Shown here one piece after another: positions 22,241 to 26,902 of a stretch of 40,367 bases of DNA. The stretch is from IMG/VR virus record IMGVR_UViG_2728369591_000003. One strand, given 5' to 3'. The position numbers and the translations under genes are program-made. The DNA is from a virus (taxonomy: Duplodnaviria > Heunggongvirae > Uroviricota > Caudoviricetes). How positions within the stretch are numbered: the first letter of the stretch is position 1; each line of letters starts with the position of its first letter. The notes under the pieces were generated by a model, which was not told the DNA's origin, searched no databases, and saw only the letters and a program-made list of their open reading frames with translations.

Positions 22241-23242
22241 TTAAGGCTTCGGCTTTTTATCGAGGCTCTTTCTAAGGATATGCCCAATCATCCTGTCGAG
22301 TTCTTCCTGTAACTCTTTTGAGAGTCGATTAAACTCATAAGAAAATGCACGGCCTTTCACGCGCTTCCTTGCAAAGCGATCCTTGTCCTCAAATTTCCAT
22401 AATTCAGTAACTACGGACTTATCTTTAGAACCTTTATCCGTGAGTAGTGAGGCTTCCTTTGTTATCAAGCGCAGGATTTTATTTTTAACTTCATCTTCGG
22501 CCATTTCTTCAATGGATAAGATGTCGTTTATTTCCGGGGATATGTTTTGAATAAGCTGATCAAACTCTAAATTCTTGTTCCCCATTTCGTCGCCAACAGC
22601 ACAAAGCGTTTTGTAGTCCGAAAAGGTTAATTCCGACTGCACAGGGAAAAGGGCGACTAATTCTTCCGGAGCACTCGCTGCCTGGAGAGCACGCGTGACC
22701 TTCGCCTGAGACAGCCCTTCTTTGGCTGCAATATCCTTCTGACTCATCCCATCATTTTTCATTCGCATCAAACGCAGACCTATTTCTCGAATGCTGTGCT
22801 GCAATGCTGTCTGAACGTCTTTCGCTAAATTTTGCGCTTCCTGAACGCTGATCTCCTGGTCCGTGACTAAAACCCGCAACCCTACGTTCTCTAAGATGGC
22901 AGAAGCTCGACGCCGGGAACCATCCAAAATTTCAATTTTCCCTGTAGCCCGTCTGACACCTATTGCAGGGTAAAATTGCTGATGCTTAATAGTGCTTCGG
23001 ATACTTTTTAATGATTTTGGCGTAAGAGATGCCTGGTCACGCCCGTTGTTATGCTGATCAACAAAGGTATCGCTTTCTACCTGGTTCGGAGGTATTACCT
23101 CTTCAATAAATGTGGCCTGGCGACCAGTTGATAACTTGAATACCTGCTCGACTCGATCGCCAGAGGCTGAAGAACTATCAAATCCGCTTAATATTGAAGG
23201 ATTAAGGGTTCGCCCAATTGTTGGTCTGTTTTTCTTTGACAT
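22241..23242 (-). CDS. parB: ParB partition protein (333 aa)
   Basis: Translation MSKKNRPTIGRTLNPSILSGFDSSSASGDRVEQVFKLSTGRQATFIEEV... matches P1 ParB as I remember it; followed by parS and preceded by parA. Confidence 0.9.
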   Translation of the reverse strand: MSKKNRPTIGRTLNPSILSGFDSSSASGDRVEQVFKLSTGRQATFIEEVIPPNQVESDTFVDQHNNGRDQASLTPKSLKSIRSTIKHQQFYPAIGVRRATGKIEILDGSRRRASAILENVGLRVLVTDQEISVQEAQNLAKDVQTALQHSIREIGLRLMRMKNDGMSQKDIAAKEGLSQAKVTRALQAASAPEELVALFPVQSELTFSDYKTLCAVGDEMGNKNLEFDQLIQNISPEINDILSIEEMAEDEVKNKILRLITKEASLLTDKGSKDKSVVTELWKFEDKDRFARKRVKGRAFSYEFNRLSKELQEELDRMIGHILRKSLDKKPKP

Positions 23243-23258: not shown

Positions 23259-24455
23259 TCAGTTAGATCTGATAAATTCAATACGGTCAAAAACTGCTTT
23301 AGCAAAATCTTCCGCAGCAATTCGCGCGTTCTTCAATGCATCAGCACTACCAACATACGTTGCCGGGTTAGCTGAAATAACAGTGTCAAAAGACTCGCCG
23401 CAGCGTTCAAAACCGTCAAGGCGAGGGAGGACAACATCAAGCATATCCCCACCGAACACTTCTTTAGCCAGGCTATGGCAATACTTATGGTCTGCCTTGT
23501 TACTCAACTTGGACATAAAACCAATGTTAGTTGCAAGCTGACACTCGCAGCCTTCATCCGAAATGAGTTTCACCAACTCAGGAAGGCGGGCAACGTATTT
23601 AAGCGATGAGTGGAAATCAACCGTTGCAGGCGGCAGAGGTGTAAACAGTATATTGGCCGAGGCCAAAGCATTTTTCAGGAAGGCGTCAAGGTGAGGACCA
23701 CTATCAACGAGGATAAAGTCATAATCGCTCTTCAGCTTATCAATCACATTCTCTTTCAGGACAGCATGGATGTTCTGACCCGGTAGATGCTCATTGCACA
23801 GCTCTCTCCAATCGGATGCAATAAAGGCATCGTCAATCGACGCAGGCATAACGTCAACCCCAGGTACAACAGAAGGAACAATAAACTCCTCTAACAGCTC
23901 TTCACGGCTTACATTCTGCAACATAGCCTGTGCAGATGTTGCGTTTACGATACCAATAGAGTGTTTATGGCTTAAAAACATCGTTGCTGAAGATTGCGGA
24001 TCAAGGTCAATAACCAGAATCCTTAAATCTTCCATCAGAAGATGAGGGTGGGCACGCATTGCATGCGCCAGAGAAACCGTCGATACAGTTTTTGACACAC
24101 CGCCTTTAAGATTGGAGATGAAAATCACATACGCTTCGCTGTAGCGATCCCGGTATTTTGGCACTCCGCGATGTTCATATATGTCAATGATGTTCTGAAT
24201 TGACATCGCATATTTCATTGAAGAGCCAGCAGGGCGTTTATCGAAAACATAACCCTTTTCTTCCATTTCACTTACGGCATAGTCAACGTTCGCACGAGTC
24301 AGTAGAGGCAATTTTGCCAGTGCCGCTTTCGCATAGACCTGGTAAAACTCGTTCGCGTGTAGCTCATCCTTTTGCAACTGTACTTGTTCAGTCAGAACAT
24401 TGAGCATTCTATTTGCTCTTTGAGCAACCTTGTGAAGCTGGCTGGAATCACTCAT
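23259..24455 (-). CDS. parA: ParA partition ATPase (398 aa), type Ia with N-terminal DNA-binding extension
   Basis: Deviant Walker A motif KGGVSKT within ISNLKGGVSKTVSTVSLAHA; 398 aa as in P1 ParA; immediately upstream of parB. Confidence 0.9.
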   Translation of the reverse strand: MSDSSQLHKVAQRANRMLNVLTEQVQLQKDELHANEFYQVYAKAALAKLPLLTRANVDYAVSEMEEKGYVFDKRPAGSSMKYAMSIQNIIDIYEHRGVPKYRDRYSEAYVIFISNLKGGVSKTVSTVSLAHAMRAHPHLLMEDLRILVIDLDPQSSATMFLSHKHSIGIVNATSAQAMLQNVSREELLEEFIVPSVVPGVDVMPASIDDAFIASDWRELCNEHLPGQNIHAVLKENVIDKLKSDYDFILVDSGPHLDAFLKNALASANILFTPLPPATVDFHSSLKYVARLPELVKLISDEGCECQLATNIGFMSKLSNKADHKYCHSLAKEVFGGDMLDVVLPRLDGFERCGESFDTVISANPATYVGSADALKNARIAAEDFAKAVFDRIEFIRSN

Positions 24456-24468
24456 CGAAAGTCATCCT

Positions 24469-24510
24469 TTATGCTGTATTTTTGAATTTAATTAAAAATG
24501 CTGCATAAAA
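24469..24510. promoter_or_regulatory. Imperfect palindrome in the par promoter region (candidate parOP operator)
   Basis: TTATGCTGTATTTTTGAATTTAATTAAAAATGCTGCATAA is an AT-rich imperfect inverted repeat just upstream of the parA start. Confidence 0.4.
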
Positions 24511-24594
24511 TAATAATGTATGCGTAGATGCTTGTACATAGCATTCTCTGCATGTTTGGTTCATTTTGCACGATTGAGAGTTACAAGGAGGGCA

Positions 24595-24616
24595 CAAAAA
24601 AGCCCCGTTCAGGGGC
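24595..24616 (-). terminator. Rho-independent terminator after the T5orf172-like gene
   Basis: On the minus strand: GCCCC tgaac GGGGC followed by TTTTTTGTG. Confidence 0.5.
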
Positions 24617-24749
24617 ATCAGTGTTATTTGCTAAGAGCAGCGAATAATCGTTCGAAATCGATAGTATCTATAGCACGCGTAAGCGCCGGAAGTTCAGCCT
24701 CAAAGTACCCGTGTCGATCGTAAAAGAAGGGACCGAAGAGCGAGGCATG

Positions 24750-25433
24750 TTAGATTCTACTTCGCCCCAGCCCGGACACACAGTTAAGCCCATTACCGGC
24801 TAAAAGGCTAAAAAACTTCTCTGGATTATCGTGGTAAAGCTGGGAATCAATGGTGGCGGTTAACTCTTCCATAGGGAAGCACACCCGCCCTGTATCCCAG
24901 GGATATTTAGTCCGAAGCATAAACATTGCTTTCAGCAATTCACATTGAGCGCGGATCGCGTCCGGTTCATAGCCAGATATGGAGACATAAGCCACGTCCC
25001 TCATTCCTGCGTCATCTTTGAAAGTCACGATAGAAGTAACATCCAGCTCTTTTTCGAAAGAGCGAGCAGCATCTACTGGACGCTGAAGTAAATCATTCGA
25101 CTTAATGCGCTCGAGAATCCCTCCCCACATATCATTTAGATATTCGATATGAGCCAAAACCTTATCAAGACACTCTCGTGTAAACCATTCAGTATGCCCG
25201 CCACCGACGCTTTTCTCCCACGGCGCATTCCAGGGGAAAAAGGTTGCGTGTAAAGCCCGCTCAAGATTAACCATTACCAAACGCGTACCACGATAGACCC
25301 GTGAAAGCGCAAAATCGGGACTCACTTGTAGCCCTTTAAACCGTGCCAATGGACCACATGAAATGCCGATTTTAAAAGTATCTCCGTTCTCTGGCACCAG
25401 AACGTAGAGGTAGTGTTGTTTCTCTTCTTGCAT
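24750..25433 (-). CDS. T5orf172 / GIY-YIG-like domain protein (227 aa)
   Basis: ATG at 25433. N-terminal ~90 aa carry the motif string YLYVLV...KIGIS...R...ERALH...GGGHTEWF, which I recognise as the T5orf172 family pattern (GIY-YIG-like start, KIGxT, E..lH, TEWF). C-terminal ~120 aa unassigned. Lies between the incA iterons and the par operon, with its own terminator. Confidence 0.55.
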   Translation of the reverse strand: MQEEKQHYLYVLVPENGDTFKIGISCGPLARFKGLQVSPDFALSRVYRGTRLVMVNLERALHATFFPWNAPWEKSVGGGHTEWFTRECLDKVLAHIEYLNDMWGGILERIKSNDLLQRPVDAARSFEKELDVTSIVTFKDDAGMRDVAYVSISGYEPDAIRAQCELLKAMFMLRTKYPWDTGRVCFPMEELTATIDSQLYHDNPEKFFSLLAGNGLNCVSGLGRSRI

Positions 25434-25468
25434 ATCAATACCACTGCTTGATGAGAACCGCGCAAATG

Positions 25469-25725
25469 TTGACTATGCGCGAAGGTTAATGTGAATAGTT
25501 GACTATGCGCGATGTGACTACAGTCAAAAGTTGACTGTAGTCGATTTAACTCCACCAAAGATCGACTATGTAAGATATTGTCGGGAGAAACGTTGACTAT
25601 ACGCGATGAAATGACCCTAAAAGCCATCTCAATAGCGACTTGCAGAATATTGACGCCAGCAAAAATCCACCAGCGTCAACGAATGTCGCCTATAGTCAAC
25701 TTCTCGCTATCGCATATAGTCAATA
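25469..25725. repeat. incA-like iteron cluster downstream of repA
   Basis: Copies of TTGACTATGCGCGA and variants at 25469, 25499 and 25583; inverted copies at 25685-25700 and 25712-25725; plus the palindromic pair GACTACAGTCAA / TTGACTGTAGTC at 25514-25544. Confidence 0.65.
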
Positions 25726-26610
25726 TTATGGATTGCGCTTATGGATCTGGAAGCCGATTTTCCTGCCGTTTTTTATCTCTGAAAATTTAAGATATTCAAT
25801 AGCTTCCAAATCTTTCATGGCTTTTCTGATAACGCTATTTTGCACGCTAACGGATGATTTGAGATTAAGCCTCGCTCTAAGGCGCTCAATGCTGACAGGT
25901 GCCGGGTTGGCGGGTAGAGCCTCAAAGAATGTATACAGTACCTTGGCCGTCTCTTTGCGCCCTAGTTTATCCAGCATCTTCAGCTTCAGGATTCGCTTAT
26001 AGTCAACATAGTAAAGTTCAGATAGCTGTTTCTGCGGCTGGATCTCGATAACATCAAGCTCGGTATTCAGGCTGCTATATGCCAACAAGTTGACGTTAAT
26101 GTTATTGAGATGACCTTTTGCCGCCGGGAAGCGGAATTTGACAACTGTCTGCTGAATGCGTGTCAGAGAGTCATCAATACTTTTACGGAACGCCTTTGAA
26201 AGGCGCTTACGTGGATAGCCGCATCGATCGGCAAACTCGGAGAATGGCAGGGTGATTATGCCGTCATCATCAGGTGCGTAGTCAAACAACGCGGAGGTTA
26301 TGCCCACCCACACCTTAAAATCAGTATCCATATCCAGGCGTGGACCATGAATTTCAATTCCCTCATAGCCTTCCTGCTCAACAATTTTGAGGCTTGATAG
26401 TTCTTCAGTTGCGTTCGTTGTGTTTGTTGTAACTGACGATCCGCGACGTAGCGCCACATTGGTAGATTTTAAGGTTGGCACAAACACACCTAAGCGCAAC
26501 AAAGCGATGGGTTGTATAGTGCTGTTGTTATTGGGCTTCAGGCTGTGGATTTCTCCTGTATTTCCTGCAACTTCTTCAACGCTAAGGAAGCCTTTACTTT
26601 CTTCCGGCAT
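25726..26610 (-). CDS. repA: RepA plasmid replication initiator (~294 aa), iteron-binding RepA family
   Basis: Shares LxxNxNxTxQPxALxRLGVFVP and GPRLDMDTDFKxWxG with P1 RepA as I recall it, but is otherwise diverged. ATG at 26610 (GGAG RBS) preferred over the upstream TTG at 26646. Flanked by iteron arrays on both sides. Confidence 0.8.
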   Translation of the reverse strand: MPEESKGFLSVEEVAGNTGEIHSLKPNNNSTIQPIALLRLGVFVPTLKSTNVALRRGSSVTTNTTNATEELSSLKIVEQEGYEGIEIHGPRLDMDTDFKVWVGITSALFDYAPDDDGIITLPFSEFADRCGYPRKRLSKAFRKSIDDSLTRIQQTVVKFRFPAAKGHLNNINVNLLAYSSLNTELDVIEIQPQKQLSELYYVDYKRILKLKMLDKLGRKETAKVLYTFFEALPANPAPVSIERLRARLNLKSSVSVQNSVIRKAMKDLEAIEYLKFSEIKNGRKIGFQIHKRNP

Positions 26611-26657
26611 CACGGTTTCTCCATGTGTGGCGCGGCCTGACGTCAATTTGGATGGCT

Positions 26658-26902
26658 GTTATCAACAGCTGTGAATATTCAGACTCTAAAATCGCTTACA
26701 GTCAATGTTTCTGTCGCGTATAGTCAACAATAAATCGCGTGCAGTCAACAATAAATCGTGCACAGTCAACATAAAATCGCGTATAGTCAATGTTGATCCC
26801 ATTTCAGGCCAGTAATGACGCGGCTTACAGCGATCCGGGATCTTCTTTGGATCTTCCTAGGTTCTCTTTAGGATCTGTTTATTGGATCTATGCTGTGGAT
26901 AA
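26658..26902. promoter_or_regulatory. oriR: Plasmid origin oriR: five iterons, a GATC cluster and DnaA boxes
   Basis: Five directly repeated iterons (TCGCGTATAGTCAAC-like) at 26692, 26715, 26735, 26755 and 26777, spaced ~20-22 bp. Five GATC sites within 26832-26888. A perfect DnaA box TTATCCACA (minus strand) at 26894-26902 and a one-mismatch box TTATCAACA at 26658-26666. Confidence 0.7.

Follow-up and report, generated by a model that had tools for sequence, protein, structure and literature searches.

The GIY-YIG homing endonucleases I-TevI and SegA-G of phage T4 begin with a catalytic domain of ~100 residues, which a linker joins to a DNA-binding domain at the C-terminus, and are encoded by free-standing intergenic genes. 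Genes with a T5orf172 domain have been described as homing endonuclease genes that are grouped next to essential genes, those for replicases among them, and lie at the edges of segments that have been exchanged (PMC10448857). In phage ICP1, the T5orf172 nuclease Odn (origin-directed nuclease, Gp88) contains a DNA-binding domain acquired from the initiator of a satellite and cuts the satellite origin in an iteron-dependent manner (PMC8263062). Odn-like genes arose repeatedly, and one of them is frameshifted in more than half of the isolates (PMC10448857). Odn and the Odn-like RepA_N-T5orf172 proteins of coliphages Inny, Muut and Mt1B1_P17 share the T5orf172 arginine and glutamate, as well as an initiator-type DNA-binding domain (PMC8263062, PMC10448857). 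Here, we analyze a T5orf172 gene located between the repA iterons and the par operon of a P1-like element, in a stretch of 40,367 nucleotides (nt) from a tailed phage (IMG/VR record IMGVR_UViG_2728369591_000003; hereafter, the window). The open reading frame (ORF) proposed in the first-pass annotation was confirmed: it occupies 24750-25433 on the minus strand and encodes 227 residues from an ATG start.

The protein consists of an N-terminal T5orf172 domain, which would be the catalytic part, and a C-terminal domain of ~150 residues in the intact gene, a predicted winged helix that would bind DNA. Our preferred reading, which we hold tentatively and stop short of calling probable, is that of a two-domain, Odn-like or homing-type site-specific nuclease, aimed at replicon-type DNA of related P1-like elements and acting as a homing or competition factor. 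A site-specific, replicon-directed nuclease is proposed because the catalytic domain, the probable initiator-like domain, the position at a module boundary, the rapid divergence and the decay of the gene fit the precedents above.

The window protein shares the layout of I-TevI and SegA-G, but it belongs to the T5orf172 branch, with KIG in place of YIG, and its C-terminal domain is unrelated. Like the free-standing T5orf172 homing endonuclease genes of ICP1, T5 and their relatives, the window gene encodes the same Pfam domain, lies between essential genes, is present or absent at a fixed intergenic site, borders an exchanged module, and is prone to degeneration (PMC10448857). In contrast to those genes, the window family has the nuclease domain first, and its members show deep divergence within a single slot instead of the pattern of a recent spread. 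Odn and the window family are both accessory, fast-changing and often frameshifted, and the fusion relatives of the window protein (see below) carry true Rep3 WH1 and WH2 domains paralogous to the neighboring initiator. Unlike Odn, which is encoded by a lytic phage attacking a satellite, the window gene lies beside the replicon of its own element in a plasmid prophage, and the Rep likeness of the P1-like family appears only in predicted structure, with sub-significant scores.

Domain architecture and possible kinship with Rep initiators

A Pfam search identified T5orf172 (PF10544) at residues 8-85 of the window protein (E-value 6.8e-6; 27.0 bits against a gathering cut-off of 20 bits), in agreement with the T5orf172/GIY-YIG-type N-terminal domain of the first-pass annotation. 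The three other lineages of the family, described below, also score above threshold (25.1-27.8 bits). MUG113 and Tox-URI2, which we take to be GIY-YIG-type families, matched the window protein below threshold in the Pfam scan, while the GIY-YIG model itself (PF01541) was not reported at E up to 1. Searching PDB sequences with the family profile produced nothing beyond one marginal match to a GIY-YIG protein (1ywl, E 0.23). The profile PHROG 2876, of unknown function, matches the window protein over its full length.

An alignment of 40 diverse N-terminal domains shows no variation at residues Y10, K21, G23, R31, S44, E58, H62 and E82, and the window allele retains every one of them. The I-TevI series Y6-Y17-R27...E75 corresponds to Y10-K21-R31...E82, and the spacings of 11 (Y10-K21) and 10 (K21-R31) residues match those of Y6-Y17-R27. 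The N-terminal domain is likely an active nuclease, since its invariant residues correspond to the pattern of I-TevI and Odn. Odn keeps the arginine and the glutamate, and its E180A mutant is inactive (PMC8263062).

The C-terminal residues (~122-269 of the intact protein) have no Pfam match. The first-pass annotation, which recognized no motif in the last ~120 residues, was correct to this extent; the domain continues past the window stop codon, and structure prediction tentatively suggests a winged helix similar to the WH1 domain of Rep initiators. AlphaFold2 modeling of the full-length protein from three sequences was too poor to be used (predicted local distance difference test, pLDDT, 57.6). 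Modeled alone from a four-sequence alignment, the C-terminal domain reached a pLDDT of 78.6 and a predicted TM-score of 0.77, with a winged-helix core of three helices and a β-hairpin. In a Foldseek search of the PDB, about the first 31 matches are almost all Rep initiators (E 0.05-1), and the top-scoring entry of a viral structure library (E 0.02, probability 0.94) bears the label "protein involved in initiation of plasmid replication". Because three structure searches agree, although each score is non-significant alone, a Rep-WH1-like fold is our best guess for the modeled domain, and a reasonably likely one.

The Pfam models Rep3_N and Rep3_C (PF01051/PF21205) matched none of the four family representatives (P0001, the window type; P0006; P0037; P0039), which gave only T5orf172 and MUG113; judged by its sequence, the window protein is not a member of an initiator family. 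An Odn-type chimera with the element's own RepA, recognizable at the sequence level, was also considered and rejected, as hhalign showed no homology to P1-family RepA or to the Rep3 fusions.

The nearest relatives of the N-terminal domain are 30-38% identical (hhalign probability 98.2%, E 2.9e-14) and include fusions of T5orf172 with Rep3_N (WH1) and Rep3_C (WH2). The fusions P0079 and P0189 pass the Pfam thresholds on rescan; for P0043 and P0191-P0194, the Rep3 assignments come from precomputed annotation only. On L007, a 58.9-kb ENA metagenome scaffold (4803-7293), a gene for a 392-residue Rep3 initiator is followed, after a gap of 20 nt, by the gene for the 430-residue P0079, whose WH1-WH2 part is 47% identical to the upstream initiator. 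By sequence comparison, P0079 has the makeup of an Odn-like chimera built from a Rep3-type initiator. A 271-residue relative without recognizable Rep domains is encoded directly after a Rep3 initiator gene in another locus (L008). The T5orf172-Rep3 fusions (P0079, P0189 and P0192-P0194, from metagenomes) thus have in common with the window family a homologous N-terminal domain and an association with iteron-type initiators. They differ in having recognizable WH1 and WH2 domains, often a long initiator C-terminus, and lengths of 430-590 residues, and some may be the initiator of their own element. They come from AT-rich metagenomic elements, of which L007, the only contig with informative neighbors, has a gene with a DNA polymerase III-type domain. 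The pairing of a T5orf172 nuclease with an iteron-type initiator, as a neighbor or as a fusion partner, thus recurs outside P1.

Distribution of the gene at the rep-par junction

Among 5.8 billion protein clusters and 1.84 billion representatives, only four divergent full-length lineages were found, the other matches covering only the N-terminal ~100 residues. P0006, P0037 and P0039 are 44%, 28% and 25% identical to the window type, and the full-length frame is kept across the family at these identities (25-44%). All four lineages occupy the same slot of P1-like elements, in the order repA, iterons, ORF, parA, parB, gene 23 (gp23), with the start codon 20-35 nt from the last iteron. Three RepA/iteron types host the gene: p0111, an IncY-like type and a third type. 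The locus L004 has a RepA 84% identical to that of the window and the same iteron consensus and layout; L005 has an IncY-like RepA (83% identical to P1 RepA), followed by P1-type incA iterons, P0037 and Ppar/parA; and in L006 the RepA is 48% identical and the iterons are of a different type. Since the same slot is filled across different replicons, including an IncY-like one, the gene is not a property of the p0111 replicon, and the slot is not peculiar to the window replicon but belongs to the P1-family rep-par junction, where the gene is a recurrent occupant.

A replicon related to that of the window (76.5% DNA identity) is found on a different phage-plasmid backbone, in a 94-kb E. coli plasmid (L003; NZ_CP085065, 4836-6128). 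Its iterons have the window consensus and layout (five at the origin, one inside repA and five downstream), and it has neither a T5orf172 gene nor an adjacent par operon, the neighbors being tail and transglycosylase genes. The possibility that the gene is intrinsic to the p0111 replicon was rejected on the basis of L003, which is without it, and the IncY-like L005, which has a homologue.

In P1 (NC_005856), repA is followed by nine incA iterons, a spacer of ~170-190 nt, Ppar and parA. The annotation contains no coding sequence between incA and parA, as the first-pass annotation had stated; its description of the gene as inserted into this backbone was not upheld. Homology to P1 ends at ~24555/24556, ~100 nt upstream of parA (the megablast match covers only query bases 1-155/158), and returns only in the GATC-rich part of oriR at ~26830-26860. 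Within the non-homologous module of ~2.3 kb between these points, RepA shares only 42% identity with its P1 counterpart, and the iterons are not those of P1; for these reasons, the ORF is assigned to the inside of a replaced replicon module. The whole repA/iteron module is the known p0111 type, as in the SJ46, RCS47 and JL22-type phage-plasmids, which contain the same gene at 97-99.6% identity. In the JL22 paper, the gene is gp57, of unknown function, and its co-occurrence with p0111 repA is already described (PMC9603915). The gene adjoins the left breakpoint of the swapped replicon module (~24556) and the point of rep/par reassortment, a circumstantial pointer to spread by gene conversion.

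The ORF is present in 401 PLSDB records, all at ≥90% identity, and the window RepA in 398 at ≥80% identity, so that the linkage between the two is almost 1:1 in this database. Of 5426 complete E. coli genomes, 412 contain the ORF DNA (query 24624-25433), nearly all of them on a plasmid. Of 421 places matched in E. coli, seven are chromosomal, and these may reflect integration or misassembly of P1-like elements.

Not every member of the P1 family has the gene: P1 lacks it, as do IncY plasmids with a P7-type par, and no housekeeping role is assigned to it in the records, which read hypothetical or "GIY-YIG nuclease family protein" in addition to the unknown gp57 of JL22. Both points agree with the first-pass annotation. 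Presence and absence at a fixed site are seen on otherwise collinear IncY-type backbones, where L005 has the gene and P1 an unrelated spacer. The occupied slot may be ancestral, with the gene lost from, or never acquired by, P1 and P7.

The region is a P1-like plasmid-maintenance core in reversed orientation relative to P1, and its features are listed in Table 1. The order on the minus strand is repA, six iterons, the ORF, a terminator-like hairpin, Ppar, parA, parB and capsid gene 23. The 5' end of parA and Ppar are 98.7-99.4% identical to P1 over the aligned stretch (megablast). The iteron consensus, TCGCGTATAGTCAAC, occurs in 12 copies in the window by pattern search, against 0.9 expected by chance. 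In the array next to the ORF, four iterons (25468, 25498, 25530 and 25592) point one way and two (25686 and 25710) the other, and 35 nt separate the final copy from the start codon of the ORF. A promoter scan found no σ70-like promoter between repA and the ORF.

Table 1. Features of the repA-par region of the window
Feature	Position	Strand	Evidence
parB, P1-type	22241-23242	-	Pfam ParB
parA, P1-type	23259-24455	-	Pfam HTH_54/AAA_31
par promoter/operator region in common with P1	24456..24555	-	megablast, P1 annotation and sequence, promoter scan
Ppar (-10 at ~24510-24515, -35 at ~24533-24538)	24538..24510 (promoter-scan match)	-	P1 Ppar annotation
Intrinsic terminator-like hairpin and T-run, directly after the stop of the 269-residue frame	24592..24616	-	terminator scan, sequence
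Untranslated gene remnant: codons 229-269 and original stop, in frame	24624..24749	-	comparison with RCS47
ORF under study, Q228* allele, 227 codons and TAA stop, ATG start	24750..25433	-	ORF list, sequence, Pfam, PHROG
Retained part of the C-terminal domain, residues 122-227, predicted winged helix, tentatively Rep-WH1-like	24753..25070	-	
T5orf172 (GIY-YIG-type) domain, residues 1 to ~105	25119..25433	-	Pfam, 40-sequence alignment, hhalign
incA-like iteron array, six copies of approximately TCGCGTATAGTCAAC, 3' of repA	25468..25724		repeat finder and pattern search
repA, p0111-type replicon, Rep3 family	25726..26646	-	Pfam Rep3_C above cut-off, Rep3_N just below
Origin iterons, five copies spaced by 21-22 bp, upstream of repA	26692..26791	+	repeat finder and pattern search

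Several further observations concern the replicon module. One iteron lies inside the repA coding sequence at the same position in three related replicons (window, 25993-26007; L003, 5330-5344; L004, 5612-5626). The mechanical ORF call starts repA at a TTG (306 residues), while RefSeq entries for near-identical plasmids use an ATG at 26610 (294 residues). In PLSDB, the rep and par modules of P1-like plasmids reassort at the rep-par junction (window, 24456-24556 and 25440-25470; P1, locus L002, 4298-4488; L019, L020), and three combinations occur. An IncY rep is joined to a P1 par in 143 records (those that cover ≥80% of the P1 probe) or to a P7-type par, in which case P1 homology stops precisely where incA ends on its outer side; a p0111 rep is joined to the ORF and a P1 par in 401 records. 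Tools disagree on the replicon type of these elements, as MOB-suite (via PLSDB) types the p0111-like replicon of L013-L018 as "IncHI1B", and the literature and plasmid names give p0111.

Rapid divergence and repeated inactivation

The gene evolves much faster than its surroundings. Between the window type and L004, the ORF product is 44% identical, compared to 84% for RepA, 89% for ParA and 80% for the capsid protein. The ratio of nonsynonymous to synonymous polymorphism (pN/pS), from a small sample of eight p0111-type sequences, is 0.29 for the ORF (0.24 for intact alleles), 0.02 for repA, 0.00 for parA and 0.06 for parB. Between the divergent lineages, at 25-44% protein identity, synonymous sites are saturated. 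The intact gene is under purifying selection, yet it is far less constrained than its neighbors.

At least four independent knock-out alleles are in circulation. They are Q228* in the window; a nonsense codon at position 112 in pE2855-2 (L013); a 2-bp deletion of nt 121-122 common to two E. albertii plasmids (L014, L015); and a frameshift near codon 82 in P0007 and P0022, whose C-terminal fragment is found on 139 contigs. Among 58 full-length matches to plasmids, sampled at even intervals, the gene annotation is split or missing in 11, which is a proxy for disruption only. The gene is clearly dispensable for plasmid maintenance. Fast divergence, null alleles, presence/absence and the position at a module boundary suggest the signature of a selfish or conflict gene.

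The window allele owes its length to a single base. Position 24752 is A in the window and G in phage RCS47, which turns CAA (Gln228) into TAA. The two sequences differ at 17 of 1401 compared bases, without gaps. Past Q228*, the frame is intact to a second stop at 24624-24626, giving 269 residues, and the remnant differs from RCS47 by the stop-making substitution and one more at 24672. The PHROG 2876 profile likewise has 269 positions, of which the window protein covers 1-227. The first-pass annotation had given the 227-codon frame its own terminator: the hairpin GCCCCTGAACGGGGC and its T-run (24616-24592) are real, but they lie 134 nt past the window stop and are assigned to the 269-residue gene, because the hairpin begins 8 nt after the second stop.

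The lost 42 residues correspond to residues 107-148 of the model and comprise one wing strand, two more strands and the terminal helix; the remnant encodes the family-invariant I258 and D259 and the model elements at 122-126 and 134-137 (strands) and 139-147 (helix). The window allele is thus probably disabled by the loss of the end of its DNA-binding domain, and its product is probably unstable or inactive.

A 61-nt probe centered on the stop has a perfect match in 20 of the 401 PLSDB records (~5%), among them 103,445-bp Salmonella plasmids and one 99,605-bp E. coli plasmid; the remaining 381 each show one or more mismatches. The exact 227-residue protein is on public record as "GIY-YIG nuclease family protein", and in the 1241-member cluster to which it belongs, 13 of the 15 listed members have 269 residues. 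The window allele itself is a truncated, probably inactive copy of an already catalogued gene. The PHROG 2876, RefSeq and JL22 gp57 records describe the same gene without function, C-terminal analysis or wider family, and the truncation of the SJ46/JL22-type allele is unremarked in them.

Candidate roles and their implications

If the gene encodes a site-specific nuclease directed at replicons, the Rep-like domain would steer the nuclease to iterons, the origin or the rep-par junction of a related element that has no such gene or one of different specificity. Cleavage would eliminate the rival, or would be repaired by recombination, and such repair would spread the gene together with the neighboring replicon module. 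Expression is probably coupled to repA transcription or RepA occupancy, because the start codon lies so close to the last iteron and no promoter was detected; it would probably occur by read-through from the RepA-controlled repA transcript, or be gated by RepA binding to the iterons. In a more specific version, a diverged initiator WH1 domain would make the protein a Rep-mimicking nuclease, at once a replicon-directed weapon and a homing element against rival P1-family replicons, whose iteron- or origin-type DNA it would cut, so that competitors in the same cell would be lost or their replication module converted; we regard this version as rather doubtful.

Several observations weigh against such a replicon-directed nuclease. 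The structural matches of the C-terminal domain have weak scores, and in hhalign comparisons of the family, or of the C-terminal domain, the probability was only 0.1 against P1-family RepA and 0.07 against the Rep3 portion of the fusions. The C-terminal domain of L004 is 32% identical to that of the window despite the shared iteron consensus, and therefore does not simply track the iterons of its own plasmid, a divergence that is compatible with shifting targets. The domain order is reversed relative to Odn, and the initiator family concerned is Rep3/WH1, typical here of iteron plasmids, instead of RepA_N. Other fusion contigs, such as that of P0193, have no separately annotated Rep neighbor, and these fusions might be initiators with an extra domain. 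The P1 incA-Ppar spacer contains no gene remnant detectable by tblastn with the four family proteins (best E 0.5). Deep divergence at a fixed slot would also be expected of a useful accessory gene that had long been inherited vertically, as opposed to one that had homed repeatedly.

Conflict genes in general tend to evolve fast and to lose function often, and the same traits in this gene could also belong to an anti-phage or anti-satellite effector, a stand-alone nuclease carried as cargo that would cut invading DNA and protect the lysogen. T5orf172 nucleases do act in conflicts between mobile elements, as Odn does against PLE, and the coliphage Odn-like genes are predicted to be anti-satellite (PMC8263062, PMC10448857); the prevalence of the gene in E. 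coli (412 of 5426 complete genomes) would also suit this role. The anti-phage lead of the first-pass annotation nevertheless found no support, as neither the 5027 PADLOC models (PADLOC-DB v2, E up to 1) nor NCBIfam gave a match, and no sensor or partner gene is present. The strict conservation of the rep-par slot in four lineages and the Rep association of the relatives suggest that the partner is replicon DNA and not phage DNA in general, and we consider a defense function distinctly unlikely. A role in plasmid maintenance, in which a Rep-like DNA-binding protein, with or without nicking, would modulate copy number, handcuffing or the interplay of rep and par, would account for the proximity to incA-type control iterons, the common strand with repA, the undetected promoter, the almost 1:1 association with p0111 RepA (401 and 398 records) and the possible Rep-WH1-like fold. 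We find it very unlikely, since stably maintained P1 and P7-type IncY plasmids, as well as L003, lack the gene, at least four independent null alleles persist in circulating plasmids, and its pN/pS exceeds the values for repA and parA more than tenfold. The invariant residues of catalytic type would also be needless in a pure DNA-binding regulator.

In the window, the gene could be a functionless pseudogene kept as a decaying passenger between two essential modules. Q228* removes 42 conserved residues, other lineages have frameshifts or nonsense codons, and constraint is relaxed; the lesion is nonetheless one substitution deep, with the downstream frame otherwise intact, and the allele still specifies the nuclease domain as well as 106 C-terminal-domain residues. 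The retention of a full-length frame at 25-44% identity and the pN/pS of 0.24 of intact alleles, which indicates purifying selection, also argue against it, and we judge this explanation unlikely. It concerns the window allele, which it describes fairly, and not the family, and is compatible with the reading as a replicon-directed nuclease.

The gene and its linkage to the p0111 replicon were already known, catalogued without function. A search of papers found none linking T5orf172 with phage-plasmids, and, as far as our literature searches show, the truncation, the confinement of the family to the rep-par slot in replicons of three types, the domain tentatively likened to Rep WH1, the relationship to Rep3 fusions and the conflict-gene signature are undescribed. 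The gene is common, being present in ~400 PLSDB plasmids, of which many are P1-like phage-plasmids, in addition to the E. coli genomes above. Such P1-like elements have been linked to the spread of extended-spectrum β-lactamase and mcr genes (PMC9603915).

If the proposed nuclease function is correct, the Odn principle would extend from the arms race between phages and satellites to competition among plasmid prophages, and the T5orf172-Rep3 fusions beside Rep3 initiators would represent the same strategy in other iteron replicons. The family would also be a source of compact nucleases with programmable winged-helix targeting. A weapon or homing nuclease of this type would be an enzymatic form of plasmid incompatibility, adding a nuclease-based layer to a phenomenon normally explained by iteron titration and handcuffing. 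It would show how replicon modules come to be replaced, and rep and par to be reassorted, within the P1 family, and would explain the swaps between IncY, p0111 and third-type replicons.

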